A stretch of DNA of 64,000 bases from Ignavibacteriota bacterium. Lineage in GTDB: Bacteria > Bacteroidota > Ignavibacteria > UBA10030 > UBA6906. Location: positions 800,001 through 864,000 of the forward strand of contig CAWDEM010000008.1 of NCBI GenBank assembly GCA_963801355.1, written 5' to 3'. This document shows positions 6,045 through 40,956 of this stretch, piece after piece (position 1 is the stretch's first letter; each line of letters begins with the position of its first letter). A model generated the notes under the pieces. That model searched no databases and was not told where the DNA came from. It saw nothing but the letters and a program-made list of their open reading frames with translations. A program made the translations under genes and the position numbers.

Positions 6045-6917
6045 TCATCGCAACAACAAGAGCCGCTTGGTTTCCATATGCGATCCCGCTTGCATCCTGT
6101 AGAAGTATACTCCGCTCGATAGCCCAACCCCATCGAACTTCACATCATGAAAACCTGCCTTCATCTCGCCATTGACGAGTTGCGCGACCTGCTGGCCGAG
6201 GGTGTTGAAGATTGTCAAGATCACGTGCGAACGACTGGGCAGGCCGTAGCGGATCGTAGTCGAGGGGTTGAAGGGGTTGGGGTAGTTCTGATGCAATTGA
6301 AAATCCCCCGGCTGCGTTTTGTTGTCTGACACGTGGAGCGATGTTCCGTATTCCTTGCCGTTGATTCGAGCGTAGAGGAGAGCCGACCTATAGGGCCATC
6401 CGGTTTCAACGAACTCCCTGACGAGCCCGAAGTCGTATCCATAACGCAGTGATTGCCCAGTCCAGCCCCCGCTTACAACTATAGTGGGAACACCTAACAC
6501 GGTATCAGGGCGTGTGCCAGCGTACCACCAGAGAGGGACGGTGGACTCGTGTGTTGAGTCGATGTACCTGCACACGTTGCCTGACGCAGAATCCAACCGG
6601 TATAAGCCCGATGCAATCGACGACTCACAATATAAAGGTTTATCACTTTCCTTAAGAAATAAAGAATACTTCACCCCATTTTGCATAACCGTATCCGAGA
6701 CTATTCGGAGCCACATGTAACATATGTGGAGGGGTGGATTTGCAATATAGTTTCCCCATTCAAATTGCCATTCATCACCGACATGCGTGGGGAAGAACGC
6801 GCATAGAGAATCGGGAGAGACACGCTGCGCCGGCGAAGAGGCACTGCAAAGGACGAATACGAAGCCAACTGCGACGAACCAGCGTCGTATTGCAGACCGA
6901 GAGGTTCCCCCTTTCAT
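6045..6917 (-). CDS. Secreted protein with T9SS type-A sorting domain (start placed at MKGGTS)
   Basis: C-terminal 'QNYPNPFNPSTTI...LSSGVYFYRM...KRLLLLR'; GGAGGAGG RBS before 6917; the longer ORF-track start runs through an attC half site. Confidence 0.85.
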   Translation of the reverse strand: MKGGTSRSAIRRWFVAVGFVFVLCSASSPAQRVSPDSLCAFFPTHVGDEWQFEWGNYIANPPLHICYMWLRIVSDTVMQNGVKYSLFLKESDKPLYCESSIASGLYRLDSASGNVCRYIDSTHESTVPLWWYAGTRPDTVLGVPTIVVSGGWTGQSLRYGYDFGLVREFVETGWPYRSALLYARINGKEYGTSLHVSDNKTQPGDFQLHQNYPNPFNPSTTIRYGLPSRSHVILTIFNTLGQQVAQLVNGEMKAGFHDVKFDGVGLSSGVYFYRMQAGSHMETKRLLLLR

Positions 6918-6990
6918 ATTCCCTCCTCCAGAGGACATAAGAATGTACGCTGCCATTTCGGTAGTGTCAAATAGCAGTGCGCAGTCTCCT

Positions 6991-7023
6991 GCCGGCGTCA
7001 GGTGCAGGCGGGGGTCAGGGCGC
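6991..7023. repeat. attC-like half site (degenerate core GTCAGGG)
   Basis: GCCGGCGTCAGGTGCAGGCGGGGGTCAGGGCGC. Confidence 0.55.
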
Positions 7024-7278
7024 TGATGGCTCCATAATCTGTCTGACGATGTCCGCATGACCCCACAGGGTACTGAGTTTGAACCTCTTCCCCATGACTA
7101 CTATCTCTATGCCATCAGGTGTTGACTGGCTAGCGTTTGAAGCGGCTCCGATGACAGCTAGAAGCGTACCAAAAATGAAAGTCTTCGGCAGACACCACAT
7201 TGTGTCGCTGATAGTGACAGGTTGACTCGGTTCAACAAACCTAATCGTTTTAGGAATTTCGGCCTCATGAAGCATGAC

Positions 7279-12335: not shown

Positions 12336-12623
12336 CTATGGACATTCCGGTAGGCTAAGAAGGTTGTTTGGGTGCAATCCGTCACTCTCGGTCTTCATGT
12401 ATTTGTAGCCGTACTGACTCGTGGCGACAATAACCCAAACCGATTTCCCGTTGACACTCACAAAGAACTGGTACGTGCCATCTTCGATACCTTTGATGGC
12501 TGCTTCTTGGGAGAGTTTCCAGCGTGTTCTATTGGCGTTGAACCCTCCAATATATAGGATTCGCTCGTGTGGGTTTGGTCGATCGCTTTTGTTGATACAC
12601 ATGATTGGGAGAGTCATAGCCAT
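12336..12623 (-). CDS. DUF3892 domain protein
   Basis: 'CINKSDRPNPHERI..IGG...W...QEAAI..IE.G...F.V...KY.KT..DG...NNLLSLPECP' family pattern; RBS GAGGGGG before 12623. Confidence 0.85.
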   Translation of the reverse strand: MAMTLPIMCINKSDRPNPHERILYIGGFNANRTRWKLSQEAAIKGIEDGTYQFFVSVNGKSVWVIVATSQYGYKYMKTESDGLHPNNLLSLPECP

Positions 12624-12956
12624 GACAGAGCCCCCTCTGAGATGTGCAAAATGTGGAGTTAGTGGAATGCTATCGAACTGCCATATACATATATACCGAA
12701 GGTGGGCTTGTCTTGGACACATTCAACCACAATAATTAAACTGTGACAGTACCCGACGTTGGACCCGATTGCCTCGCAGATCGCGCTGCCAATGAAATTA
12801 CCAAGGCCCATAGAGTTCTCCCCCTTTGTCATCTGTGCATAAGGATTGAACGCGACTGTTCCTGAGAATCCTCTAACCAATGGATAATGAGTATTTCCGA
12901 AGCAATGGTGCGCCGATTCACAAAACTCGAACTGCGATTGGAGCCGAAAGGCGTTA

Positions 12957-13919
12957 TCACCCTTTCATTGTTGCAGAGTCCTTGATGGCGGCTTCCATTG
13001 TCCGAGAGGCAAGGGCCTTCTCTACCCGGCGAAACGTTTGTTCGAAGAAATCCGGCTCTATCTGGCGAGCCGAAGACAGACTCCCAAGAACAGATCGTAG
13101 ATCGACCAAGTCAGCTACTTCAACATTCGGGATAGCATTGAGTTTCTTCAGGATTCTTTGGCGTATTCGATTCGGAATCCTCAGTTCGGCGGCAGGACTG
13201 ATCGCCGTTCCCGTCACAACCTTGTAGTGTCTCTTGGAGTGACGGTGACTCTTGGAGGCCTTCAAGCGGAGACCTATACGGTTCAGAAGACGATCCACGG
13301 TCAAGCAGACCGACGCCGGAATCGGATTTGGCGAGGTAAACGTCATGTCATCAACGTATAGCGAAAATGACATGCCTTGGGCGATCGCAAACTCAGAGAA
13401 TGCATCAAAAGTTCGCGAGTACGCCCAATAGGCAATCGACTGACTCAGCGCGCTCCCTGTTGGAACATGATCTTCATATGATGCGATCTTCGTCATGAGG
13501 TGGGCCACATCTACATCCATCAGCAATCTATAGCGGAAGAATCGAAAGATATGCTCGCTTCGACAGTTCGGAAAGAATTGCTCTACGTCCACTGTCAGCG
13601 AATGGACACGACCAAGATGGTGCTTCGCATTGTCAATACTGGAAATTCGCTTCCTTCCGGAGAACAGGTAGTTGGGAGGTTGGATGCGGGATAGAAGGAT
13701 ATGAATCCTCTGATGAACCCGCTTGAGAGAACCAAGTGGCTCCTCGATGCGACGAGGCTTTCTCCCCTTTTCTTTCTTTGTGAAGACCCTGTAGAGCTTG
13801 CTTGAGGAAAGCGCAGGAAAGTCTCTCTGAGAAACGCCGAGTAGTCTGGCGAGTTTTCGCTTGTTGCGCAGTCGGAAAAAGGGGCTACGATCTATTTGAT
13901 AGGTCACTTGCCCCGGCAT
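12957..13919 (-). CDS. Retron-type reverse transcriptase
   Basis: Region X 'NAKHH' (NAxxH), 'DVEQFFP', 'VPTGSALS', catalytic 'YVDD', region Y 'VTG'; 320 aa with no maturase or fused domain. Confidence 0.92.
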   Translation of the reverse strand: MPGQVTYQIDRSPFFRLRNKRKLARLLGVSQRDFPALSSSKLYRVFTKKEKGRKPRRIEEPLGSLKRVHQRIHILLSRIQPPNYLFSGRKRISSIDNAKHHLGRVHSLTVDVEQFFPNCRSEHIFRFFRYRLLMDVDVAHLMTKIASYEDHVPTGSALSQSIAYWAYSRTFDAFSEFAIAQGMSFSLYVDDMTFTSPNPIPASVCLTVDRLLNRIGLRLKASKSHRHSKRHYKVVTGTAISPAAELRIPNRIRQRILKKLNAIPNVEVADLVDLRSVLGSLSSARQIEPDFFEQTFRRVEKALASRTMEAAIKDSATMKG

Positions 13920-14196
13920 CTTCTATCCGTTGCAGGAACCGGATGGCTGTTTTCCGCGTGAAGGCCTTCACATTTCTGAATCTTCTGCCTTTGTCAAGCT
14001 CTTCGGCGAAAAAGAGAAGCGAAGCCGATGTTGTTTTGAAAACACGTGCATACCTGCGGATGATCTCAAGCGAGGGTTCCTTTTTCCCTGCTTCGATTTC
14101 GGATAGGTAGCTTGGCGAGATTCCAAGCTCAGCGGCCATATCGACCGACTTCAGGTCATGCAATACACGCAACAGACGAAGCGCCTCATGAAGCAC
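13885..14196 (-). CDS. XRE-family HTH protein (retron-associated)
   Basis: 'MAAELGISPSYLSEIEAGKKEPSL' HTH; GGAGGT RBS with GTG start; overlaps the RT start by 35 nt. Confidence 0.9.
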   Translation of the reverse strand: MLHEALRLLRVLHDLKSVDMAAELGISPSYLSEIEAGKKEPSLEIIRRYARVFKTTSASLLFFAEELDKGRRFRNVKAFTRKTAIRFLQRIEDAGASDLSNRS

Positions 14197-14240
14197 GAAG
14201 TACCTCCGGAGTAATGAACTGTAGAAGGTAGGTTAGGGAG

Positions 14241-14372
14241 TTAGTTGCCAATGAACTTGATGAGCGCTCTAACGGAAAGCAACAAGATATCCACAAGTTC
14301 CTGCCTGTGCTTCCACATCAGCCTTCTCACCCTTTTCAGGGCAACACGGTGGAGCAACGTTGCGTCCTTCAT
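14241..14372 (-). CDS. 43-aa small protein, candidate retron effector (not in ORF track)
   Basis: AAGGAGGT-6 nt-ATG; MKDATLLHRVALKRVRRLMWKHRQELVDILLLSVRALIKFIGN*. Confidence 0.8.
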   Translation of the reverse strand: MKDATLLHRVALKRVRRLMWKHRQELVDILLLSVRALIKFIGN

Positions 14373-14702
14373 GATCTTACCTCCTTCCCACCCACAAGCC
14401 CAATCCACCATGGATGAGCCGGGGCGTCACTTTGGAAGGAGAGGAGGCTCTGCCGCGTTCGCTCCCTATCCTATTGAGTGGTGCTCATTTCACTTTGAGC
14501 ACCACTCCGACGACAACTGATCCCAGTATGCGGGCGTATATGCAATGCGATCTGCACTTGCAGACATACGTACCGAGCGTCACTTGTTGCCGGAAGTGTC
14601 TGAGCTTAGAACATCACTAAGCTCCCGCGCATCAGGATACTCCCGATGCACCCTTAGGCGGGTTCGTGTTGACCCCGCGCAGTGAACGTCCTTTCGCAAC
14701 GT
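14373..14702 (-). ncRNA. Retron msr/msd-containing structured leader RNA (boundaries approximate)
   Basis: Perfect 12-bp hairpin 14476-14507 (candidate msd stem); further hairpins at 14551-14564, 14602-14624 and 14629-14649; lies directly upstream of SP-HTH-RT. Confidence 0.7.
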
Positions 14703-14708
14703 TGAGAC

Positions 14709-14759
14709 AACATACACAATGATTCTGACAATTGCAAATAATATTCGCTGTCAGCGAAT
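14709..14759 (-). promoter_or_regulatory. Candidate retron promoter and palindromic operator
   Basis: TTGCAA(14732-14737)-17 nt-TATGTT(14709-14714); perfect palindrome ATTCGCTG-T-CAGCGAAT at 14743-14759. Confidence 0.5.
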
Positions 14760-15034
14760 GCCACCTTATTCAGGTCAACAGCCGTCAGTTCATGGTGGGC
14801 GAGGAATCGATGTATGGAGCCTCCTCCGGTACGCTCTCGACCGTCACATCCGCCGAGGTCACCCCCCAAGGCTGTCAACATGCCGGTCACAACGTCGTTC
14901 TGAAATACAGTGGGGTTCACGAGCGGCGGGACGAGAATACCAATGACGACGGTGGGTTGACTGGCCGCTGTTGGCGTCCAAACCACTCGCACTGTGCATA
15001 GGCCTAAAGGCAGATGGTACGACTCCCATAAATC

Positions 15035-15403
15035 CTACGGACATGACATTCCGTGCATCGGCTCCCACGCCCCTGTAGCAGTTATCGGAAACGACATCAA
15101 ATACTCAAACTGCACTATCCCCTTCTTGTTCACAGTGAACAACCCCTTCTTTAGTCCCGCCTTGACGATCCGATAGGCCGTACTGCGAGAACAGCCGATG
15201 TTCCTGTAGACAGCTTCGACCAACTGCCGACGAGGCATCGATTCGCCATTGAAGCCGGGAGGCGTCCACCACGGGCCATCGGAGTACACAAAGTAAAAGA
15301 AATCAAAGCCGAACGGAATTCGACGGGAGCGGCTCTGGGGATCGTGAATATTGCGTGTGTGTTTCATGGGGTACCCTTTAGGTTGTTGAATGGTTGTTTC
15401 CAC
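15035..15403 (-). CDS. Hypothetical, possible winged-HTH protein
   Basis: 'RRQLVEAVYRNIGCSRSTAYRIV...GL' HTH-like segment. Confidence 0.5.
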   Translation of the reverse strand: METTIQQPKGYPMKHTRNIHDPQSRSRRIPFGFDFFYFVYSDGPWWTPPGFNGESMPRRQLVEAVYRNIGCSRSTAYRIVKAGLKKGLFTVNKKGIVQFEYLMSFPITATGAWEPMHGMSCP

Positions 15404-15491
15404 TTGTTGTCCGTGTAAGTTTATTTTGACAGGAACCGTCCGTTGACCGGTGCAGCCCGCCTGACCGCCCTCGTGTTGTCAGCGCCCGTGG

Positions 15492-18236
15492 TCAGGACTC
15501 CGGTGGTGAGTAGTCTTCAACGACTTCCACCCACTCGCCGCCCACGAGTAGGAACTCCTGAGCGTCCTCGACCCGTACTGCATGCTGGCCGTCCGCTGAG
15601 TATTCAAAATCCTCAGCCTGCGAATTTGCTTCATTTTCGCCATTTTGGGATTCTGGGGGTAAATGGGGGTCCTCCGCCAAAGGTTTTACTACTGCGCGTA
15701 CGTGTGAAGAGCTATGTTTATTGACCCCCCTTGACCCACCTGCCGTTTTTGGCACATTTTCGCCATTTTTTGGATTTTGGGGTGAACTGGGGTCAACTGC
15801 GGTAATTTTTTCTAACACACGCGTATGGGAAAAATCCTGTAAATTGACCCCAGTTGACCCCAACTTCGTTTTTTGTTCATTTTTGAGCCTTAGCCCTATC
15901 CACAACCTTCGTTTTTGTCCAGTGCTCTCCACCTCCGTCCGAAGTCCGCGGGCCGCCAGCGCGTCCGCGAGGCGCCGGAGCTTCATCGGGAGCAGCGCCT
16001 GCGAGGTACACCACTCGACGTACTGCGCCTCGACTACCGAATGGGTGAGGTGCTCCACTTCCGGCACTCCGACGACGACAAACCTATCATCTATGAACCT
16101 TGCCACTGTATCGGAGTCCACCCTGTACGCCTGCACGGCGTCCACGACTGCTTGTGGCTCGACGAGTCCATTCGTCCTGTAGTCTACAAGTCCGCGTATC
16201 ATCCAGTTCAGTATTCCACTACCCTCGGCGAGGAATTCCTGCACAACCTCCTCCAGCGGGCGCCGAGCACCTTCCGGAAACTGATAATTGAACGGCACTT
16301 CCTTAACCCTGCGCCAGATACCACCTCCAGCACTATCGGCCACTCTCGGTTTTGTGTTTCCAAACATCCAGAAAATTGCACGGCTATCAAACTCAAAAAA
16401 GTTTCCGTGCAAGTTGCGGGCACGAATAGGCTCCCCACCCGTTAACACGTTAATAAGCGGGACGTTCAGGTACTGCTTGTCCGACACTTCCGAGACGGGT
16501 ACGAACAGAATATCCTTCAACGCGGCCAATGCTGGGGTTGCGGCGTTTCCGTCCGGCGCCCTATCGGCGGAGGCCAGTAGATTCATCGGAGCGCTCATGG
16601 CGTACGATCCATAGATTCGTAGCAGTACAGTTGTGAACGTAGTCTTTCCATTCGCTCCCGTAGGCCCGTAGAGGAAGGGTTGTATCTGCGCATCATTCCG
16701 TCCGGTGAGCATCAAGCCTGCCATCTGCTGGAGAAGGCGAACGCAGCCTCGGTCGTGCTGCACAATCAAGTCCAAGAAGGCCTCCCACTTCGGGCACTCG
16801 GCCAGTGGGTCGAGTTCGACGTCCATCTGCTTGGTATGCATGTATCGTGGTTCGTGCATGAGTAACTCCAGCGTGCGAGTATCAAGTACGCCGTTCCGAA
16901 GGTTCACAAAACGGGCGTCCGGGTTGTAGTCCTTGTTCAGTGTTATAATTGATGATTCATTTTTTCCAGCCATAGCCAGTACGGACTCCACGAGGCCATG
17001 ATTTTGATACTTGTTAAACCCACGTAGGAACACTGCTCGGTCATCCTTGTCCGGTATACTGGCCAAGTACACCACTTGATGCTCTATCGTATCCAACGCC
17101 TGCTGGAAGCTCTCCCGACGTCCATCCTCCACCCACAATCCATTTACGTAGATCATCCACACCTTGTCGTCCGCGTTCCACCGTACGTGCTCTCCATACA
17201 AGCCCACAAAACGGTGTGCGAGTTCGTTGTCGTTCCAGTAGGGCGCCCTGTCCGCGGGGTTCACTTCTCCATATCGGTGAAGTATTCCTCGTACTGTACG
17301 TTCAACTTCCTTATCCTCCATGGGTGGTGAGCAGTGGGCGGAGTTCCAATACAATCCAGCAGCCACAATAGCCTCATCCGATTTACCAGTCAATCCACGT
17401 TGACGGAGTTCAAGTCCGACGAGTGAAGTGAGGACTGCATTCCGACGGCCCTCCGGTACAAGTCCTTCATACGCCTGCTGGTAGTTCCGAACTACTCTCG
17501 GTACCACCGACCCCTCGGCGTTTACTGCCGATCCACTTAACTGCTGACCCTGCCTAGTTGAGGGCGAGTAGTCCATGGATTTAAGTGGTGTGGTGAACTT
17601 ATGGAACGCATCGACCACCGTTTCGACTTGCACAACCGCCGGTGGTTCGCTTGGCACGCGTTGATACATATCTTGCTGGGGGCACAATACCGTGTAGTGG
17701 TTTCTCCACCGAAGTTCCATATGCTTAAAGCTCGTGGCGTACTTGTCGTTCGCGTCGTTGTCCCATTTTTGTTCTCCATTCGGTAGTTCCCGTGTGCACC
17801 TGAACCACACGTGCCAGCCGAGGAAGGACAACGAGCGCTCTACCCACGGATAGTCCACGGGAAGTCCGAGGGCAGCCAGCAGTTCGTCCACTACATTCGT
17901 AGGAACTTCCGTCGGTGGTTCTTTTATGGCATCAACATCGATACACCTCCACGACTGGACGCCACTTACGACTGCGACGCTTATATCGGCCTGCGACCAC
18001 GGCATGCGCTCCACGTCCTCCACGGACTGGAGTTCAACTTCCCATTTTTTCCATTCCTCGACTACTGGTTTTTTGTTATCCACTTCACAACGGCAGGGTA
18101 ATACGTTTGCACCATGGACGTGCAGCTTGTGTGCTGTTTGTCGCGTGGTTGTAACTGGATGCACAAACTGATTTGGATTGACAAATTGTGGCAGGCTGCC
18201 ACTGGCGGGTAAAGCAACAACGGAATTGATAGACAT
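15492..18236 (-). CDS. Phage/plasmid primase, P4 family (Prim-Pol + PriCT + D5 SF3 helicase)
   Basis: 'CIDVD' and 'GWHVWF' prim-pol motifs, 'EGRRNAVL' PriCT, 'NLRNGVLD' D5_N, Walker A 'GPTGANGKTT', 'IWRRV...PF'. Confidence 0.92.
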   Translation of the reverse strand: MSINSVVALPASGSLPQFVNPNQFVHPVTTTRQTAHKLHVHGANVLPCRCEVDNKKPVVEEWKKWEVELQSVEDVERMPWSQADISVAVVSGVQSWRCIDVDAIKEPPTEVPTNVVDELLAALGLPVDYPWVERSLSFLGWHVWFRCTRELPNGEQKWDNDANDKYATSFKHMELRWRNHYTVLCPQQDMYQRVPSEPPAVVQVETVVDAFHKFTTPLKSMDYSPSTRQGQQLSGSAVNAEGSVVPRVVRNYQQAYEGLVPEGRRNAVLTSLVGLELRQRGLTGKSDEAIVAAGLYWNSAHCSPPMEDKEVERTVRGILHRYGEVNPADRAPYWNDNELAHRFVGLYGEHVRWNADDKVWMIYVNGLWVEDGRRESFQQALDTIEHQVVYLASIPDKDDRAVFLRGFNKYQNHGLVESVLAMAGKNESSIITLNKDYNPDARFVNLRNGVLDTRTLELLMHEPRYMHTKQMDVELDPLAECPKWEAFLDLIVQHDRGCVRLLQQMAGLMLTGRNDAQIQPFLYGPTGANGKTTFTTVLLRIYGSYAMSAPMNLLASADRAPDGNAATPALAALKDILFVPVSEVSDKQYLNVPLINVLTGGEPIRARNLHGNFFEFDSRAIFWMFGNTKPRVADSAGGGIWRRVKEVPFNYQFPEGARRPLEEVVQEFLAEGSGILNWMIRGLVDYRTNGLVEPQAVVDAVQAYRVDSDTVARFIDDRFVVVGVPEVEHLTHSVVEAQYVEWCTSQALLPMKLRRLADALAARGLRTEVESTGQKRRLWIGLRLKNEQKTKLGSTGVNLQDFSHTRVLEKITAVDPSSPQNPKNGENVPKTAGGSRGVNKHSSSHVRAVVKPLAEDPHLPPESQNGENEANSQAEDFEYSADGQHAVRVEDAQEFLLVGGEWVEVVEDYSPPES
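15632..15861. repeat. Two ~123-bp imperfect units with converging GGGGTCAA/TTGACCCC iterons, candidate replication origin
   Basis: CATTTTCGCCATTTT at 15632 and 15755; paired iterons flank AT-rich cores. Confidence 0.55.
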
Positions 18237-26265: not shown

Positions 26266-29103
26266 CTAATCCCCCCCATCATCGAAGTGTAAGTCTGCAT
26301 CCTGCAACTTCATCTCAAGGTCATTCGGGTCAAAAGATACATCCCAGTTCCATTTGCCAAAACCACCGTGTTGATTGACAGCCTTGCACCACTCATTCAA
26401 GAAGACTCGCTTCGTTTTGTCTTGCTGCTTGTCCTGTCCCTTGGTTTCAAGAATGAGATAATCACCTGTTTTGCGCCTAATTATGAAGTCAGGATAGTAC
26501 TTCCGAACTACACCGTCATGGCTATAGTGGATGGCAAAACCGATGTGGTCGTTCTTCACAAATGAGTCAACTACCACGCTATCATTGATGGTTTTTGCTT
26601 CGAGATACTCCCAATCACTGTCCACTACAACAAAATTGATATGCGTCTTTGGAAGTGGAGCATTGCGCTTGCTCGTCCACCACGGTCGCAGGTCGTTGGT
26701 CGAGCGAATGGGATGCTCCTTGTCAAACACTGGAGTAAGTTCGGCCGTATTCTCGGCACGAATTTCATTCCAGATATGTTGAATCACTTTGTTCATGTTC
26801 AGCATAATCAGTATGCGCCTGCGGGCATCATCTTCATTGAATAGAGGGTTCTTTATCCTAATCCTGTCGGAGTAGATGAACTGCTCTATCACACCTATAA
26901 GTTGAATTAGAAATGCTTCTTTGCTCCCCTTCCAATCAGGTTTCCTTTCAGAATTGTAGATCGTTGACGCAATCCTAAACACGATAGACTGCAAACGGAA
27001 CTTGGTGCCAATCTCTTTCAAGTCAATTTCAGTGAGTGCGGCGGGGTTCGGTTTTCCCGCAATGATGGCAGCAAGCTCTGCCTCTGTTATGGCGTCGTAC
27101 GGGTCGAGTTCAAGCTGTCTGACTTTGCCCATATCCAGCGAGAGCTTTGGCTTATAGACATGGTCAATACGCAGGATATTCGGGAAAGAAATCTCATGCG
27201 CAACCTTTTCGCTTACAGGTTCAATCTTTGTTTTCGGTGGTGGCGGTGGTGGTGGAGGCCCACCTTCACCCCCCTCATGAGGAAGGAATGTGAACGGCAC
27301 TCCAAATATGTTTACATATTCTGCCTCAAATAAGCCGTCCTTTCCGACATCATAAGAAGTTCTCCGCAATCCACGGCCAACGACCTGTTCACACAGAAGC
27401 TGACTACTGAACGCCCGTAAACCCATGATGTGCGTAACGGTCTTGGCATCCCACCCCTCACTAAGCATCCCAACTGAGATTATGTTGTGCAGTTGTTCTC
27501 CGAGTTCTCCAATCCTGCCAACGGTATTGACTGTCAAACGAACAATCTCTGCCTGTTGCTTCTTCGTCAACTTCTTTGCCTTAGGAGTCTCAACCTCGTC
27601 TTCGTCGTCGTTTTCTTCCACGGTACTCAGTTCGATTTCCTCTGTTTGAGCTTCCGCCTTTTCCAAGACGCTGCTGTCAATCTGCAATGTTCTTTTCGGG
27701 TCGCACAAGTCTCCTAACCCAGCAACTGCCAGCAGGAAGGCATCTTTGTCGAACGAGTACTTCAATCGTCCTGACGTGGACGTTGTGTTTGCCACCGTAA
27801 TCATCACAGGTGGCACTTCATGACCTACCCTTTCCCACTCATCCTTTGTTGCCTTCCAGTCCTTGCCAAGAAGCAGGTAAGCATTCCTGATTAGGTCGGG
27901 CAGCGGGTCGGTTTCCTCCGCCTTGCGGTTGATGTCGTCCTTGACTGTTTCATCCATGTAGATGTGATAAAGCCGAGAGCGCAAATCCTCGTCTACTCTT
28001 CCATCATCACGAATAACAACACGGGGTGTTTTGACAAGTCCTGATTCTATTGCGTCATTCAGTCCAAAATCGCTCACTATCCACGAGTAGAGGGCTTCCT
28101 CAGAGGCTTTCTTGCCTGATGGCGCAAATGGCGTTGCTGAGAAATCGAAGCATCGGAGAATTCCCCGTGTCCGGTGAATTCTATCCAACCCACCGACCCA
28201 GACGGTGCTCTCTTCGATGTCCTCTTTCTTCACACCTGCAATCTTACTCTCTGCTGGAACTCTCCACGCATGGTGTGCTTCATCGTTTATCACAAGTAGA
28301 TTCGATGCCGAAGACATATCTTCCAATACCTCTCGAACATAGGCCTCGTCGCTTTTGGCACCTCGTTTATCAACACCTTTCTTCTTGGCAATTCTTTCTT
28401 CGCTATCCCAAGCCAAGGCATGCCAGTTAGTGATCCTGATTCTCCCTTGTCGCAGAGTTTCCATCAAACTTGAAGGGACGACGTTGAATGCCTCGTAGAA
28501 GTTTCCCTTGTCATACGGATTCAGTACACACAGACGATTACGAACCGTCAACCCCGGTGCAATCACGAACACATTCTTCGAAAAGCGCTTGTCCCTTGCA
28601 TTGGCGACCTTATTGAGCACCTGCCATGCAATGAGCATACTCATCACAATGGTCTTTCCAGACCCAGTTGCCATTTTGTTACACCAGCGGGAAAAACCTC
28701 CGCCGTCACTTGGGATTACTATTCCCGTCTTTTCGGACTCTGGTGCCTCGGTCAGCCAAATCAGGGTTTCGATTGCTTCCAACTGACAGAAGAAAAACTT
28801 CGTGTCCTTCCGCTGTTCAGGGTCTTGCCAGTGTTGCAGCAACCGTTTGGTTACCCCTGTCACCCCTGCGTAGCCCTCCTCGCGCCAATGCTTGACTCGC
28901 GGACGGATATCATTCACAAGTGGTATCGGAATGAAGACGCCGGGGTCGTCAAATCCTCTGGAATTCTCAGTCGCAATAATGTAACCCGCGGGTCTTCGTT
29001 CTCCTTCGTGAAGGATGAATTCACGAGTCTCCCGAACATACTCCCAATATCTCTGTGGTTCTTCGTACGGCGAATTGATTATGAGCTTGTTTATTGTTTT
29101 CAT
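26266..29103 (-). CDS. res: Type III restriction enzyme Res subunit (BPTD_3080-like)
   Basis: 'MATGSGKT', 'NDEAHH', 'FSATP', 'MLSEGWD', 'QVVGRGLR' and C-terminal 'PDF...ILETKG' nuclease motif. Confidence 0.92.
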   Translation of the reverse strand: MKTINKLIINSPYEEPQRYWEYVRETREFILHEGERRPAGYIIATENSRGFDDPGVFIPIPLVNDIRPRVKHWREEGYAGVTGVTKRLLQHWQDPEQRKDTKFFFCQLEAIETLIWLTEAPESEKTGIVIPSDGGGFSRWCNKMATGSGKTIVMSMLIAWQVLNKVANARDKRFSKNVFVIAPGLTVRNRLCVLNPYDKGNFYEAFNVVPSSLMETLRQGRIRITNWHALAWDSEERIAKKKGVDKRGAKSDEAYVREVLEDMSSASNLLVINDEAHHAWRVPAESKIAGVKKEDIEESTVWVGGLDRIHRTRGILRCFDFSATPFAPSGKKASEEALYSWIVSDFGLNDAIESGLVKTPRVVIRDDGRVDEDLRSRLYHIYMDETVKDDINRKAEETDPLPDLIRNAYLLLGKDWKATKDEWERVGHEVPPVMITVANTTSTSGRLKYSFDKDAFLLAVAGLGDLCDPKRTLQIDSSVLEKAEAQTEEIELSTVEENDDEDEVETPKAKKLTKKQQAEIVRLTVNTVGRIGELGEQLHNIISVGMLSEGWDAKTVTHIMGLRAFSSQLLCEQVVGRGLRRTSYDVGKDGLFEAEYVNIFGVPFTFLPHEGGEGGPPPPPPPPKTKIEPVSEKVAHEISFPNILRIDHVYKPKLSLDMGKVRQLELDPYDAITEAELAAIIAGKPNPAALTEIDLKEIGTKFRLQSIVFRIASTIYNSERKPDWKGSKEAFLIQLIGVIEQFIYSDRIRIKNPLFNEDDARRRILIMLNMNKVIQHIWNEIRAENTAELTPVFDKEHPIRSTNDLRPWWTSKRNAPLPKTHINFVVVDSDWEYLEAKTINDSVVVDSFVKNDHIGFAIHYSHDGVVRKYYPDFIIRRKTGDYLILETKGQDKQQDKTKRVFLNEWCKAVNQHGGFGKWNWDVSFDPNDLEMKLQDADLHFDDGGD

Positions 29104-29107
29104 GGGG

Positions 29108-31687
29108 TCACATGCGGATGATTTTCAGGCTTTCAATCCCGCGGGCATCAATAATCTTTACGGCGACACGTTTGCCCGGCGTGAACAGCAGCGATTCAGT
29201 GCCGCTGAACGCTTCAATCTTGTCTTCGTCAATTTCCGCTCTTAGGTTCTTTGCAAGTGTAGCCCACCCCTCCTTTACCCCTGCCATCGGGAAGAACACC
29301 TGTGATGGCAATAAACTTCTTCCATCATAATCAGAGTCCAGCATCCACATAGCGATATCGCCCTGCCCACCACTCTCTACCGTACCATTAGTCGGATTGT
29401 AGTAGTCGAAGCCGAGTACCTTTACCCTGTATTTGCCTTTGTCTTCTCCCCGTTTGACTTCTTCCATTCGTACATCGGGCTGGCCGATGAGCCAGAAGCT
29501 TTCGTTGCTGCTTCGCTTCTTTTTCAAGTCATCGGTCTGTAGGTCGGCATTCATCTGTGCCTTTAGAAGTGTTACCCCATGCCAATTCATTTCGTCAATA
29601 TCCTTGGCAGCCTCTTCATCGAATTGGAAGGCACAGAACAACACCATCTGTGGCTTTGGCTTTAGGTGTTCTGCTTCGTCTAAAGCCAACTCGACAGTCC
29701 TTTGTTCCAAAGGCGCATGTTCGGGGCCGAAACAGATTACCACGTGCTGCGGTTGTTGAAATACAGTTGGGTCTGTCTTCTCAAAGAGATTCTTGGAGTC
29801 AAGTTCGACTATAGTCTCTGCCTCTGCCTGCAAGTAGCGTGTGCCCACCATCGGCTCGACTCTGGAAAACCTAATGAGCTTACCACCTTTAGCTCTGACG
29901 CCTGCACGAAACAATTCATCACGCCATTCATTTTGACGTAGGGTCTCTCCGCTTCTCGCAACGGTATTATCGGCTCTACCAGCCGTGCTGCTTTCAACGT
30001 CGTCAAATGACCGCGCGACGGGAGCGGGCACTGCTTCAACTGTGAATGGGCCTGTCACCCTTATTCTCTTGCTGTCTATCAATGGTTTGTCATACAGGAT
30101 TTCTTGAGACGCTGGTTCATTGTTGGCGATGCATTTCATCGTCACGTGAGTTACACTTCTGTACGAGAAACCACTGCTTACTCCTTCGTTCGGGTGCGCC
30201 AATTCAAAATAGTCAAAGTTGTCAGTTATTAGGCTTTGCTTCGCAAGGGCTACGGCTACTCGTGAAGTGTCGCATGTAATCCATCTCCTGCCCCATTTTT
30301 CTGCAACAGATGCCGTTGTGCCGCTTCCACAAGTGATATCTAAGACTAAGTCTCCCGGGTCAGAAGTCATAAGAAGACACCGTTGCACTATCTCCTTGTT
30401 TGTTTGAACGACGTAAACTGGGTTCGCTGCCCCGCCGAAACCTGACCATAAGTTTGTCAGCGCTCGATAGGGAAAATCATCGAAATAGGATATGAACCGA
30501 ATGCTGTTGTCGGTCGCCACAACTCTGTTCGCCTTTAAAACGTTCTGTATTCCGTCTGGAGTTGTTCCCCACCACCTATTTCCAGAGTCGTATTTTCTCC
30601 CCCTATACTCTATCGTGAATTTGGAGCCGGGGCCGGGCTTAGTCATCAAGACCGTCATGAAAGGCTTTGCACCTTTCGGCAAGGGTACAGCTTTGGTGGA
30701 TTCTTGCTCCGTCATTGGCCTCCGTTTCCCGCCACTTTCTTCAATCAAAGTGTAACCAGAGTCATAGGCATCGCTCTTCTTTTCAAATAGTGGTCTGTAC
30801 TTGACGTGTGCCGAATCCTTTGCATACCAAAGAATGTAGTCCAACACACTGCCTACGCGGTTTACAGCCCGTAACCCACCAGCGGCTTTCGAGAAACAAA
30901 CAAGGGACAGGAAATTGTCAGAGCCAAAAACCTCATCCAAGATGTTCTTCACCAGATGAACATTCTCATCACTAATCTGGACGAAAACGCATCCACTTTC
31001 ATGAAGAAGGTCTCTTGCCAATAGTAATCGGTCACGCAGATAACTGAGGTAACTGTGAATGCCCAACTCCCACGTATCCCTGAATGCTTTTATCATTTCA
31101 GGCTCCGCCGTCAAATCCTCATCTTTACCATCCTTCACATCACGCCTGTTTACGAATGGTTGGAAGTTGCTGCCATATTTGATGCCATAAGGTGGATCAC
31201 AATACACCATCTGCACCTTGCCACCCATGGCTTCCTTTTCCAAAAGAGAGTTCATTACCAATAGACTGTCGCCCGCAATTAGGCGATTGCTCCAATTTTC
31301 TTTGTGCCTATAGAACTCAATTGCCTCACGCATAGGCATCCGGTGCGCCTCAAATAGAGAAATCTGTCCTTTGTCGTCTGGTTTTTTGCAGACGGATTCA
31401 ATAATCCGCTTCGGGTCAATCCGCTCGTGAACGTGCAGACTCACCGTGGGCACCTCAAAACTCGTGTGTTCGGCTTTGCCAGCCCATTCCAGTCGCGGGT
31501 CAAGGTGGGGATCATACTGGTATTTCTTCTTTTTCAATCCAACGTTGTCACTATGGGCGTCCACCAATCCGACAGGTGGGTTGTTCAGCCGCTGTTTGTC
31601 CTTATGCTCATAAGCCACGATAGGTTTATGAGAACTCGGTACTTTGGTGCGCGGCATTTTCACTCTGGGAGATTTCTTCTTTGCCAT
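29108..31687 (-). CDS. mod: Type III Mod subunit, adenine DNA methyltransferase
   Basis: 'DPPYG' precedes 'VLDITCGSGTT' (beta class); 4 bp from res. Confidence 0.92.
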   Translation of the reverse strand: MAKKKSPRVKMPRTKVPSSHKPIVAYEHKDKQRLNNPPVGLVDAHSDNVGLKKKKYQYDPHLDPRLEWAGKAEHTSFEVPTVSLHVHERIDPKRIIESVCKKPDDKGQISLFEAHRMPMREAIEFYRHKENWSNRLIAGDSLLVMNSLLEKEAMGGKVQMVYCDPPYGIKYGSNFQPFVNRRDVKDGKDEDLTAEPEMIKAFRDTWELGIHSYLSYLRDRLLLARDLLHESGCVFVQISDENVHLVKNILDEVFGSDNFLSLVCFSKAAGGLRAVNRVGSVLDYILWYAKDSAHVKYRPLFEKKSDAYDSGYTLIEESGGKRRPMTEQESTKAVPLPKGAKPFMTVLMTKPGPGSKFTIEYRGRKYDSGNRWWGTTPDGIQNVLKANRVVATDNSIRFISYFDDFPYRALTNLWSGFGGAANPVYVVQTNKEIVQRCLLMTSDPGDLVLDITCGSGTTASVAEKWGRRWITCDTSRVAVALAKQSLITDNFDYFELAHPNEGVSSGFSYRSVTHVTMKCIANNEPASQEILYDKPLIDSKRIRVTGPFTVEAVPAPVARSFDDVESSTAGRADNTVARSGETLRQNEWRDELFRAGVRAKGGKLIRFSRVEPMVGTRYLQAEAETIVELDSKNLFEKTDPTVFQQPQHVVICFGPEHAPLEQRTVELALDEAEHLKPKPQMVLFCAFQFDEEAAKDIDEMNWHGVTLLKAQMNADLQTDDLKKKRSSNESFWLIGQPDVRMEEVKRGEDKGKYRVKVLGFDYYNPTNGTVESGGQGDIAMWMLDSDYDGRSLLPSQVFFPMAGVKEGWATLAKNLRAEIDEDKIEAFSGTESLLFTPGKRVAVKIIDARGIESLKIIRM

Positions 31688-35159: not shown

Positions 35160-36446
35160 TCAAGCTGATGTGCGCGAGCGCTCCATCTGCAACAACTCTT
35201 CGACGAGAACTGTCAGCTTGGCGATAGACGGACGACCCTTCTTCCCCTTCTTTGGGAGTTTTGCGTTTGCACGCGTTTGTGCGGGGCCAGTAATCATCGC
35301 CGCGATTTGGGGATGGTTCAGCGTATCCAATATCCCCCACAAATTGCTTGGTGCAAGATGAGCATATATCTCGGTCGTCTTCGTGTCAGAATGCCCCATC
35401 ATTTTGCCCACTGAGAACAATGGCACACCATTCGTTGCGAGATTGCTCGCGAATGAATGCCTTAGATCGTGAAACCGTAGCTGAGGATTCAGACCTGCTT
35501 TGCGTACCCATCGTTTGAAGCATCTTCCCAGATAGCTTTCATCCATAACCTTCAACTGTCCGTTGCGTAATTGCGGGAACATCAAGCTGTTCTTGTCTCT
35601 GACATTCTTAGCTCTGACTTTCAAGACTTCGTACGCAGTGTCATTTAACGGAACAATCCGCTCACGGCTCGACTTCGTCGTAAAACCAGAATTATTTTCA
35701 TCTTTGAGTGTGTTGCGCACCTTGAGTACTCGACGCTCCAAATCCACGGCATTGGCACGTAAGTTTCGAAGTTCACCACTTCGAAGGCCTGTGTTGAAGG
35801 CGGTGATTATAAGCCGATGCATCGTTTTCCGGTTAACCACAGCATCACGTTCGTGTTGCTTGAGCGACTTGTCAACGTTTAGCCTGATGGAATCCCTTTG
35901 GGATTCCGCCGCCATCGTATCCATCAACTTGGCAAACTCGTTTACAGTCAGCCAGTTCGGTGTACGCTCAACGAGCTTAGGTTTCTTGATTGACCGCCAG
36001 ACATTGGTCTCAACATATCCCCACTTGCGAGCAGATTCGAATGCAGACGCCATTGCGGTGTAGATTCGCCGTGCGGTAGCTGCACTGGTCTTGCTCTGCT
36101 TTTCGTCCATGAAATCCTGAATGTCTTTGACCTTGATGTCGCGAATGCGCCGATCACCAATGCACCGGATGAAAACGTTGAAGCACGTTTGACAGTTCTT
36201 GTATGTCTTTAGCTTGTGTTGCTGGCGACTATGGTTGAGATACTCAGCACTGAATTCCTTGATGGATAAGTTCTTCCTCTTCGATCTTGCTTGAACTTGA
36301 CCACCGAGGAATTTCATTACCCAAGTCTTTGCATCAGCCTTCTGTTTGGAACCTGTGCTTACTTTTCTTCGCTTGCCATTTTCGTCGACGTACCAGAGGT
36401 AGAGTACTCCGCTTGCATGGCGGGACAACGAATGAGATGGTTTCAT
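35160..36446 (-). CDS. int: Tyrosine recombinase / phage integrase
   Basis: N-terminal arm-binding segment, 'TGLRSGE', 'TKS', 'FHDLRHSF', 'MGHSD...TEIY'. Confidence 0.95.
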   Translation of the reverse strand: MKPSHSLSRHASGVLYLWYVDENGKRRKVSTGSKQKADAKTWVMKFLGGQVQARSKRKNLSIKEFSAEYLNHSRQQHKLKTYKNCQTCFNVFIRCIGDRRIRDIKVKDIQDFMDEKQSKTSAATARRIYTAMASAFESARKWGYVETNVWRSIKKPKLVERTPNWLTVNEFAKLMDTMAAESQRDSIRLNVDKSLKQHERDAVVNRKTMHRLIITAFNTGLRSGELRNLRANAVDLERRVLKVRNTLKDENNSGFTTKSSRERIVPLNDTAYEVLKVRAKNVRDKNSLMFPQLRNGQLKVMDESYLGRCFKRWVRKAGLNPQLRFHDLRHSFASNLATNGVPLFSVGKMMGHSDTKTTEIYAHLAPSNLWGILDTLNHPQIAAMITGPAQTRANAKLPKKGKKGRPSIAKLTVLVEELLQMERSRTSA

Positions 36447-38737: not shown

Positions 38738-40798
38738 TTACCTCAGAAGCAACGACTTGCGCGTCTCCACAAAACCCAGTCCTGAACTGCGTAAAAGATC
38801 CGTTGCTCCGCTCCTGGAGTCATGCCCGACAGCTGCATTGGAGGGACGAACTTGTATCCTGTAGAAGTACACTCCACTCGGGAGACCATTCCCTTCAAAC
38901 TTCACATCATGGTACCCTGCCTCCCTTTCTCCATCCTGGAGAACTGCGAACTGCTGACCGAGGGCGTTGAACACGGTCAGGGTCACATGCGAACGATTCG
39001 TCAAGCTGTAGCTGAGCGTCGTTGACGGGTTGAAAGGGTTCGGGTAGTTCTGGTACAATATAGCCTGGACGGCCACTGTAGGCGGATCGTCATTCACCGA
39101 TGAAGTCTGATTACCCTTTAAGAGTTCAATTCCATTGCCCGTTCCCATGTTTCTGGAATATTGCATATGGAGACTATCGTTCCAGTGTTCATGCGTTCCA
39201 AGACTTGCGAGCACTGTGCCGTCGTTCTCCGGATCATATCTGATGCCGGCGGGCCAATTGGTGGTGTCGGCGGCCTGGTGAAGATAGTCATCGGTGGCAT
39301 TCATCTGGGGATACGTGCCTGCGCCCCGGGCCGCGGTCCACTCCGCCCGCAGAAAATCATACCCCACCGACTCAATCGCCAGCGGATCAAAAGACGCAAA
39401 TACCGAAGACATCCAATCGTTATTGAACGGTGCCATCATCCATTTCAATGGGAAGTGCAGCTCATAGTCGGTCGCCCACAACGCATCCATCAGATAGAAG
39501 AGGTTTTTCTTCCCCAGCAATTGATGCCCCATCAGATCCACCTGGACACGGTACATCCCGTAGTCCATACGATACGGAGTGTTTGGATACTCCTCCGGCG
39601 CCACCAACCCTCCGTGGAGGTGTGAGGCACTGGACCGTGTGTGCGATCCGAAGTGATTCTTGGCAAACATGGTCACGCCTCCCCGCTTATGCCCTTTCAG
39701 CATCGGGATATTGAGCAGGTATTCGGCTTTGTCGAAGACATCATAGAGCAGATCCTCGGTGATGGCTGTCCCCGTCGACCCACTCGATTTCAGAACGGTT
39801 CCTCTGTCAGAATACTTGATCTTTGCAGTGGTGCTCTTAACGGCCTTCTCTCTTCCCAGGTTCGTGTAGCCATCCGTGTCCAGGTAGTGGACATCAGGGA
39901 ACTCGGCGTGCCAGAGATCGTAGCAGTGTTTGTAGATATGCTTCATGGGATCGCCGACATAGATGTCCGCCTGAGCTACACCGACAACGTTCACCAATTG
40001 ACGCAACACCGAAAGAACAATGGCAGGAGATGTCTCAGAGACGGCATAGTACATGACGCCCGTGCGTGCACTGAGATCGGCGGTATTGAACTGGCCGCTC
40101 CAACTGCTCGTCGCATTCGTTTTGATGAAAACCTTCTCTCCTGATGTATATCCCACTGCTCCCTTTCCGCGGGTGGAGTTATGAAACCGGAAAATGGCAA
40201 CCCAGGCCGCGGAATCCGACGATGTGCCGGTCAACCTGCTGATGGCTGTCGACACCATCGTATCAATGACAGGCTGATTGTTGTTTTCGGGGCGATACCA
40301 TTCGTGGCTGACAACGGCCGGGGTGCAGTTTTCGTTTGTCGCCTCCGGACGGTGTATCCAAACGACTCTTCCCGGAAATATCCCGACGGCGGTCCCGATC
40401 GGTTGATTCCCCACCAGATGGAAGGTGGGTAGCTTGACATCATAGGCGTTTGCAGGATCATTGACGAGCGTATACGAGACGAACAGCCCCATCAATGCGA
40501 GCACAGACATAAACACTAGAGCCGGGATCGTCTGCTGCTTCTTCGCTTTTGCCCACAGCAAGAGCGACACACCCACGAAGAGGAGATATCCAATGAAGCT
40601 CGAGGCAAATGGCATTGCGGCACGTACACAAGGATAGGCAATACGGCTTGGCTTTGTGGCAACCCGAAAGATTATCCATGCGAGGGCCACCAAGCCGACA
40701 ATCGGTGCCAGGACCATTGCGAGACCGTGTGGCCTCTTCAGACCGACGAACTTGCCAGACTTAGGGCAAAAACGGAGATACTCTCTGAAGAATTTCAT
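38738..40798 (-). CDS. DUF362 domain protein with T9SS type-A sorting domain
   Basis: 'KPSRIAYPC', 'GIFPGRVVW', 'NIPMLKGH...GVT..AKNHFG' and C-terminal 'QNYPNPFNPST'. Confidence 0.85.
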   Translation of the reverse strand: MKFFREYLRFCPKSGKFVGLKRPHGLAMVLAPIVGLVALAWIIFRVATKPSRIAYPCVRAAMPFASSFIGYLLFVGVSLLLWAKAKKQQTIPALVFMSVLALMGLFVSYTLVNDPANAYDVKLPTFHLVGNQPIGTAVGIFPGRVVWIHRPEATNENCTPAVVSHEWYRPENNNQPVIDTMVSTAISRLTGTSSDSAAWVAIFRFHNSTRGKGAVGYTSGEKVFIKTNATSSWSGQFNTADLSARTGVMYYAVSETSPAIVLSVLRQLVNVVGVAQADIYVGDPMKHIYKHCYDLWHAEFPDVHYLDTDGYTNLGREKAVKSTTAKIKYSDRGTVLKSSGSTGTAITEDLLYDVFDKAEYLLNIPMLKGHKRGGVTMFAKNHFGSHTRSSASHLHGGLVAPEEYPNTPYRMDYGMYRVQVDLMGHQLLGKKNLFYLMDALWATDYELHFPLKWMMAPFNNDWMSSVFASFDPLAIESVGYDFLRAEWTAARGAGTYPQMNATDDYLHQAADTTNWPAGIRYDPENDGTVLASLGTHEHWNDSLHMQYSRNMGTGNGIELLKGNQTSSVNDDPPTVAVQAILYQNYPNPFNPSTTLSYSLTNRSHVTLTVFNALGQQFAVLQDGEREAGYHDVKFEGNGLPSGVYFYRIQVRPSNAAVGHDSRSGATDLLRSSGLGFVETRKSLLLR

Positions 40799-40956
40799 GC
40801 TCACTACCCTTCTCTTATGCAGATCATTTCGGTCGAACGGAACCCTGATCTGTTGCACACGTTCCCGCCGACCGCGACTCCTCCACAACGCACCGCAGGC
40901 AGGCATTAGATAATATTGGCCTAAAAAGAGGGAAAGTCAAGAAGAGCAAGTGCGCC

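Follow-up and report, generated by a model that had tools for sequence, protein, structure and literature searches.

A divergent type VI retron-like locus in an Ignavibacteriota bacterium, with a conserved and covarying lock on the Shine-Dalgarno sequence of its candidate toxin gene

Judged by its genes and their order, a locus on the minus strand of a 64,000-nucleotide stretch of Ignavibacteriota bacterium DNA (contig CAWDEM010000008.1, positions 800,001 to 864,000; this whole stretch is hereafter the window, and all positions are counted from its first letter) belongs to the type VI retrons, which defend bacteria against phages, and is a divergent example of a design described in 2025-26. 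The open reading frame (ORF) at 14372-14241 is probably the small-protein (SP) effector of this retron. The Shine-Dalgarno (SD) sequence of SP is sequestered by an anti-SD sequence lying upstream on the same RNA, and this lock is conserved and covaries among related loci. Since the lock, a long-range helix between two inverted repeats (IR1 and IR2) and a co-varying direct repeat are all present, we favour, with some confidence, a riboregulation of SP resembling that of Retron-Vpa2 from Vibrio parahaemolyticus.

The operon runs over 14758-12957, in the order promoter, structured leader, SP gene, helix-turn-helix (HTH) gene and reverse transcriptase (RT) gene. The assignment to type VI follows from the two genes directly downstream of SP, which match the RT_VI and HTH_VI families. 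The RT (12957-13919, minus strand as all features of the operon; 320 amino acids, aa) is recognized by PADLOC RT_VI at 5e-77 across residues 12-293 of 320, the runner-up family being RT_III-A at 5.8e-34, and carries a YVDD motif that is invariant across an RT alignment of 18 sequences. The HTH gene, which together with its SD GGAGGU (14207-14202) spans 13885-14207, starts at a GTG at 14196, codes for 103 aa (14196-13885) and overlaps the RT gene by 35 nucleotides (nt); its product matches PADLOC HTH_VI at 2e-28 and Pfam HTH_3 at 4.4e-13, and it contains Arg7. In the classification of Mestre et al., as applied by PADLOC, type VI is marked, besides a reverse-transcribed template for which 14592-14476 is the candidate here, by an RT of the type VI clade, a Cro/C1-type HTH gene lying directly upstream of it or overlapping it and an SP ORF between the non-coding RNA and the HTH gene, and these three are present in the window. 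A scan of 12500-15500 against Rfam at E <= 1 returned zero matches.

The SP gene, coding for a presumed toxic effector of 43 aa, extends from an ATG at 14372 to a TAA stop at 14243-14241, with the SD GGGAAGGAGGT (14389-14379) 6 nt ahead of the ATG. This ORF and its strong SD, together with a basic N-terminal half and a hydrophobic C-terminal helix, had been pointed out in a first-pass annotation of the window, and both descriptions agree with what we find. The net charge is +7 over residues 1-24 and 0 over residues 25-43, the mean Kyte-Doolittle hydropathy is -0.76 in the N-terminal and +1.34 in the C-terminal half, and an AlphaFold2 model based on a 13-sequence alignment predicts one helix over residues 2-42 (mean pLDDT 77.8, pTM 0.34). 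By analogy with the SPs of Retron-Vpa2 and Retron-Sen3, the peptide would be toxic. The family is small: SP as a query against 5.8 billion protein clusters matched only itself, an ESM Atlas search gave nothing usable, and a profile search of 1.84 billion representative proteins found just 13 relatives at E <= 0.001. Pfam and PADLOC scans of the 13 SPs of the window and the related loci described below gave no consistent match, neither collection holding a model of the SP family. A W(K/R)HR core is shared by 9 of the 13 aligned SPs, and its conserved Arg is encoded by five different codons, which argues for selection on the SP protein. A longer, 56-aa reading from the in-frame ATG at 14411 was rejected: this ATG lies in the loop of a hairpin within the lock, it has no SD, and the extension is not common to the relatives. 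A promoter scan gave sites not above shuffle counts, and no antisense RNA antitoxin was seen, no search having been aimed at one.

The nearest RTs among the 5.8 billion protein clusters are 53-55% identical to that of the window and nearly all metagenomic. Related loci were collected through the 18-sequence RT alignment (13 genomic, 15 metagenomic and 7 from viral contigs). Searching with the window's HTH protein by tblastn placed an HTH gene ahead of the RT in 13 of the first 28 loci, 12 of which include upstream DNA. In every one of these 12, an SP-like reading of 40-56 aa, taken from the shortest start having an SD, ends 29-54 nt before the HTH start, so the ORF is kept upstream of homologous HTH-RT pairs, the conservation on which the first-pass annotation had made its claim depend. 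Direct tblastn matches of SP reach the ORFs of L015, L016, L001 and L014, with E values from 9e-10 to 1e-3 in a very small database. Four further non-redundant loci, from viral contigs, share the layout. Where a host is named, it is a member of the Ignavibacteriota, Bdellovibrionota or Bacillota, and part of the loci were taken from a viral-contig collection. In an RT tree of 21 rows, from which L013 and L024 were left out as fragments, L014 and L015 are the nearest neighbours of the window (support 97/92), an Ignavibacteriales locus joins this group next, and every row with a WKHR-type SP falls on one side of a 100/99 branch. Five RT relatives of Pseudoalteromonas type (L003, L004, L007, L011 and L022) may have an accessory layout different from SP-HTH: tblastn with the window's HTH found no HTH gene in them, and an ORF for an 88-aa basic and hydrophobic protein abuts the RT (~2763-3029 in L003).

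The lock itself is a 9-bp helix in which UCUCCUUCC (14442-14434), the 3' part of a CU tract at 14450-14434, pairs with GGAAGGAGG (14388-14380), the CU box lying 46 nt upstream of the SD. The first-pass annotation had noticed its core, the anti-SD CTCCTTCC (14441-14434), as an exact 8-nt complement of the SD enclosing an ATCCA/TGG/TGGAT hairpin (14415-14403), and this observation is borne out: the pairing is above chance and covaries in relatives. The anti-SD:SD helix is present in 4/4 fold windows with an ensemble pair probability of 0.95-0.97, and the SD GGGAAGGAGGU (14389-14379) has a probability of being unpaired, P(unpaired), of 0.00-0.03 in the ensemble. The word GGAAGGAG occurs three times on both strands of the 64 kb (2.5 expected), two of these occurrences being the inverted pair, 46 nt apart. 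More generally, the whole 521-nt RNA stretch folds better than its shuffles (z = -4.6, 0/100 as good).

Comparison between loci points in the same direction. For 11 sequences, the anti-SD:SD helix is the sole consensus structure given by RNAalifold. In an alignment of eight sequences fitted with a covariance model, 7/7 pairs of the lock are changed on both sides and 91% of the cells are paired, and in the inner hairpin enclosed by the anti-SD:SD helix (14426-14389) the same holds for 5/6 pairs of helix 3. The full structure of 21 pairs is 75% paired, against 62.5% for column shuffles (0/500 reach the observed value) and 42-59% for slid partners. A MAFFT alignment of the stretch from IR1 to the HTH gene (A2) was inconsistent with the structure and was excluded from the pair counts. 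In per-locus ensembles the SD core has a P(unpaired) of at most 0.17 in 11/13 loci, and in 12/13 it pairs with a CU box located 50-75 nt upstream; in the four further loci the values are 0.01-0.31, with the upstream box again the partner in all four. When this box is masked, SD accessibility rises to at least 0.39 in 13 of the 15 relatives where masking could be carried out.

Two observations were made around the CU tract. A conserved GCGAA(U)ACG-like motif stands between IR1 and the tract (14451-14461 in the window) in 7/7 aligned loci. The 5' half of the tract is also able to pair with the 5' leader of the RNA: in one fold (14373-14702), 14684-14692 (AGGACGUUC) pairs with 14442-14450, and similar pairs were seen by eye in L015 and L014. 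A leader closure of this a1/a2-like kind, next to the anti-SD, would be in competition with the SD lock or would stack on it. The duplexes of leader and CU tract returned by duplexfold were long, rich in loops and no better than shuffles.

Just past the SP stop codon lies a pyrimidine box (14240-14223), which comprises IR2 (14240-14229) and the sequence CTAACCTACCTTCT (14236-14223) that the first-pass annotation had taken for a second, 3' anti-SD. The box is mainly the 3' arm of a long-range helix with IR1, showing compensatory changes, which encloses the SP arm and ties it to the template domain: in the window, IR1 UAGGAUAGGGAG (14473-14462) and IR2 CUCCCUAACCUA (14240-14229) form 11 bp, and they pair in the folds. 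An equivalent helix that reaches 10 bp or more and contains no more than one mismatch is found, with differing sequences, in 13/13 loci; these helices rank within the best 5% against composition shuffles in 5/13 loci and 2/4 further loci. When the 325 nt upstream were searched, the best partner of the box ended 74-95 nt before the ATG in 11/13 loci, at a box of purines immediately 5' to the riboregulator. A run of at least five T follows IR2, by eye, in 9 of the 13 loci (L015, L014, L016, L001, L018, L006, L024, L013 and L002), and not in the window (14200-14228), L017, L021 or L019; it resembles a terminator, with which the hybrid RNA would end ahead of the HTH gene.

Upstream of IR1, the RNA shows a succession of hairpins that may correspond to the template domain. 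Three msr-like 5' hairpins (14678-14658, 14651-14627 and 14624-14602; together 14602-14678) are present in the folds and, with altered stems, visible by eye in L015 and L014 (alignment A8). They are followed by a long stem-loop (14592-14508), candidate for the main template (msd), whose helices are the same in 4/4 fold windows and which is poorly conserved between loci, and, at the end of this domain, by a 12-bp perfect hairpin, SL-D (14507-14476), with a hairpin folded at its place in most of the 13 loci. A template role of 14592-14476 is suggested by position and structure, by analogy with Retron-Vpa2. The earlier proposal that one structured RNA carries both the ORF and the presumed template of reverse transcription is supported.

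The loop of SL-D holds one copy of a direct repeat, CAAAGUGA (14497-14490), and the second copy (14434-14427, part of an element at 14434-14424) is found in an internal loop beside the anti-SD. The longest word common to the SL-D and anti-SD regions within a locus averages 6.9 nt and reaches at least 7 nt in 9/13 loci; in the between-locus control, the mean is 4.87 nt and 7 nt are reached in only 6/156 comparisons. In the four further loci the common word measures 7-9 nt, which brings the loci with at least 7 nt to 13/17. As many as 13 different words are found among these 17 loci: since the words differ between loci, yet match within each, a change in one copy goes along with the corresponding change in the other. 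Direct repeats on a single RNA are unable to pair with each other, but a complementary DNA (cDNA) made from one copy could pair with the second.

A putative promoter of the hybrid RNA is located at 14737-14709, with a -35 box TTGCAA (14737-14732), a 17-nt spacer and a -10 box TATGTT (14714-14709), from whose position transcription would start near 14702. In alignment A8, its TTGC/TTGAC ... TGTATATT blocks line up and are conserved across 6/6 loci. A 15-bp palindrome, TTCGCT-N3-AGCGAA (14758-14744), stands 6 nt upstream of the -35 box; it has a single match in the 64-kb window (0.01 expected) and occurs once in each of nine related loci, always promoter-proximal, with one-mismatch variants in L021 and L024. 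A reading of the hairpin 14759-14743 as terminator for the gene upstream was rejected: because the distance of the palindrome to the -35 box is conserved, an operator is preferred. The palindrome is therefore a candidate operator of the retron HTH protein, and suggests that HTH may also repress transcription. The main text of neither type VI preprint mentions an operator, a palindrome or an autoregulatory layer.

The model that we propose takes its outline from the work on Retron-Vpa2 by Zhang et al., which matches the study of a Vibrio type VI retron mentioned in the first-pass annotation. According to the main text of that preprint, SP is toxic and encoded on the same ~470-nt hybrid RNA (hyRNA) as the template; its translation is repressed, with the ribosome-binding site (RBS) as well as the start codon lying in stem-loops, and is derepressed by multicopy single-stranded DNA (msDNA); 7-nt repeats are found in the msd loop and in the riboregulator loop, for which hybridisation of the cDNA was proposed; and a mutation of HTH Arg7 is toxic (bioRxiv 10.1101/2025.10.22.683967). 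By likeness to this system, the ~500-nt RNA of the window would be reverse-transcription template and toxin mRNA at once, and in uninfected cells SP would remain untranslated. Phage recombination or anti-RecBCD proteins would lead to accumulation of cDNA (msDNA), in which the loop word is present as its complement and would hybridise to the word beside the anti-SD; the lock would be disturbed, SP made, and growth of the infected cell stopped. The HTH protein would keep the system off, perhaps by transcriptional repression too. An extended version of this model is more tentative, and we put it forward as a possibility rather than an expectation: the repeat pair would serve as a private address, by which the cDNA of each retron unlocks only its own toxin mRNA, the post-stop box would act in the window only as a back-up lock once the first one opens, and HTH would be a transcriptional autorepressor acting through the palindrome.

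Several points weigh against the favoured reading. At this locus the cDNA, the toxicity of SP and its repression are all carried over by analogy. The pair counts come from an alignment that was fitted to the structure and is thus biased towards it, and the anti-SD:SD duplex energies of individual loci are only modestly above dinucleotide shuffles, 4-50 of 200 being as good (12/200 in the window). The covariance model R1 recovered just its seven seeds and L017 at E <= 0.01; among distant loci, it gave L019 at E 0.18, L021 at E 2 and L002 at E 7.6, and nothing at the expected place in L006 and L013, so that the loci beyond its reach were assessed by per-locus folding. The step from hybridisation to unlocking is without computed support: masking the repeat word in the nearest-neighbour model leaves the SD at a P(unpaired) of 0.02-0.03, and, as the 8-nt word stops short of the anti-SD, simple strand displacement is not predicted. 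Finally, in Retron-Sen3 the RBS is predicted to be sequestered and SP is nevertheless reported to be constitutive (bioRxiv 10.64898/2026.04.27.721009), and therefore a predicted lock is no proof of repression.

This last point opens the way to a different account. As described by Garcia-Rodriguez et al., both SP and cDNA are constitutive in Retron-Sen3 and HTH is a post-translational antitoxin, the RNA showing IR1-IR2 pairing with the 3' arm just past the SP stop codon (bioRxiv 10.64898/2026.04.27.721009). Applied to the window, SP would be always translated and neutralised after translation by HTH, the RNA would be a scaffold for the RT-HTH complex, and phage interference with RecBCD would free the toxin, with cDNA and translation unchanged. 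Since Retron-Sen3 combines a predicted lock with constitutive SP, such control, reported there for a type VI retron with a predicted sequestered RBS, has to be reckoned with here; in our loci HTH and SP are neighbours and both are conserved, and the SP start codon is fairly open in the model (P(unpaired) 0.61). We nonetheless consider it rather unlikely, since the SP, at 43 aa, would lack the N-terminal extension of ~25 residues and the long amphipathic C-terminal extension that are described as forming the HTH interface in Sen3, the co-varying direct repeat has no part in such a model, and the relatives occur in Ignavibacteriota, Bdellovibrionota and Bacillota, as opposed to the Beta- and Gammaproteobacteria given for cl2075 in the same preprint.

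The first-pass annotation had itself offered another arrangement, in which the upstream CU box holds the SD and 14236-14223 takes turns with it or acts as its back-up, while a 9-mer repeat supports a template switch of the RT; we give it little credence. The box can reach the SD in the window when the 5' anti-SD is masked, 14233-14223 then pairing with it at ~0.64-0.69 (0.12 in a shorter construct), and it is also able to pair in the fold with the HTH SD (14230-14224 with 14207-14201). Left unconstrained, however, the window's ensemble nowhere brings SD:box pairing above 0.03, and the complementarity, 9 bp with one bulge, is equalled by 152/200 composition shuffles of the box (38/100 by duplex energy) and follows from IR1 itself being SD-like. 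In no locus does this pairing beat shuffles (25/200 as good in the best case), and 0/16 relatives pair the SD with the post-stop region, masked or not, the masked shorter constructs giving at most 0.01 in 16/16. With IR1 as the conserved, covarying partner of the box, the paired 5' and 3' lock is not supported, and a back-up role of the box is predicted for this window alone. The 9-mer fares in a mixed way. Both copies of AAGTGACGC are where they had been reported, at 14432-14424, overlapping the second repeat copy, and at 14585-14577 in the long stem-loop, with no third site in 64 kb; the repeat is weak against shuffles, 16/100 of which give at least two matches, and its distal copy, for which 6/300 shuffles score as well in the window, has a counterpart in 0/11 other loci and is thus specific to the window. 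The conserved copy is that in the SL-D hairpin loop, which speaks against a strand switch, and the conserved repeat is more readily reconciled with the cDNA-to-RNA hybridisation proposed by Zhang et al. than with a template switch. The repeats might alternatively be two binding sites on the RNA for one protein, RT or HTH, co-varying as its specificity drifts. This proposal concerns the repeats only and is compatible with the other readings; both copies are in loops, masking the repeat site leaves the SD closed in silico, and RT, HTH and hybrid RNA co-purify in Vpa2 (bioRxiv 10.1101/2025.10.22.683967). It also seems improbable to us, given that the recognition-helix residues of HTH (S27, S29, L31, S32 and E33) are nearly invariant among relatives while the repeat words differ between loci, and that, in the Vpa2 preprint, cDNA provided in trans from another retron sufficed for SP induction, the 5' stem-loop of that cDNA being required.

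Sequencing contigs from four runs, at a depth of 2-4, were compared with the locus, the RNA-labelled runs being without cover of HTH and RT and the DNA runs without cover of SP. Contigs 93-99% alike were found on 14253-14566, which includes the SP gene, the riboregulator and the SL-D hairpin, in one metatranscriptome run and in another labelled metatranscriptomic that is probably DNA; they indicate presence in libraries, not expression. In an RNA library, one contig from a close relative ceases to match the window past 14523, within the long stem-loop, as if the template stem of this relative were variable and differed from that of the window.

The surroundings of the retron are island-like over 2048-36446, with a tRNA-Arg (2048-2124), a PriCT_1/D5_N primase (15492-18236) and a tyrosine recombinase (35160-36446). 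A DUF3892 gene comes right after the RT (12336-12722), a BPTD_3080-family restriction endonuclease gene (26266-29103) is followed by an adenine methyltransferase-like gene (29108-31687), and proteins with a type IX secretion system (T9SS) sorting domain, which point tentatively to a host from the Bacteroidota-Ignavibacteriota group, are encoded at 6045-7058 and 38738-40906.

Taken together, these results do not define a new kind of system, and extend the fusion of a toxin mRNA to a retron template to a divergent clade. The comparative data constitute independent sequence support for features published for Vpa2 and Sen3, namely the 5' lock, the IR1:IR2 helix and the repeat pair, and make two additions, the co-variation of the repeat word and the conserved promoter palindrome. 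If the private-address proposal were true, the cDNA of each type VI retron would open the toxin mRNA of that retron and no other.

Some type I toxin mRNAs are kept silent through long-range sequestration of the SD. The SP message resembles them in coding for a small basic and hydrophobic peptide and in having its SD paired within its own mRNA, and differs from them in that a double 5'-3' lock is not conserved and that the proposed unlocking agent is reverse-transcribed DNA. In trans-activated riboregulators and toehold switches, an SD hairpin lies beside a single-stranded word complementary to a trans-acting nucleic acid. The window likewise presents an SD hairpin with an adjacent word complementary to the proposed trans-acting cDNA, whereas here the activator would be cDNA from the same RNA.

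Closer parallels are found in the two type VI retrons, as far as the main texts of the respective preprints describe them. With Retron-Sen3 the window shares the SP-HTH-RT module, a predicted paired RBS, an IR2 just past the SP stop codon and a structured SP coding region. In Sen3, IR1 is the 3' segment of a long internal stem-loop, whereas in the window it comes after a separate hairpin; the SP of Sen3/cl2075 is extended at both termini and has 79 aa, compared with 43 aa here and 40-64 aa in the relatives, a comparison of lengths alone; and control is post-translational with constitutive cDNA in Sen3, whereas we propose an msDNA-driven unlocking.

The likeness to Retron-Vpa2 extends further along the RNA. 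Both loci have the order leader, SP, HTH and RT, with a single structured RNA of ~470-500 nt that carries template and SP gene, and the Vpa2-type hybrid RNA is recognized in the window by its SD sequestered in a stem-loop, its short direct repeat, of which the template domain and the riboregulator each hold a copy in a loop, and its IR1:IR2 closure, which folds the 3' end back onto the non-coding domain. The SP is in both cases small and helical with a hydrophobic C-terminus, and HTH has Arg7. The succession of the long stem-loop (14592-14508) and the short hairpin (14507-14476) may also correspond to the layout of truncated and full-length msDNA in Vpa2. The two differ in the length of SP, the only respect in which the peptides were compared (43 aa against 55 aa), in the hosts, which for the nearest relatives are not Proteobacteria, and in the repeat word, which varies between our loci whereas the main text of Zhang et al. 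describes it as highly conserved. By analogy with Vpa2, the translation of SP at this locus would depend on msDNA, and its product would be toxic.

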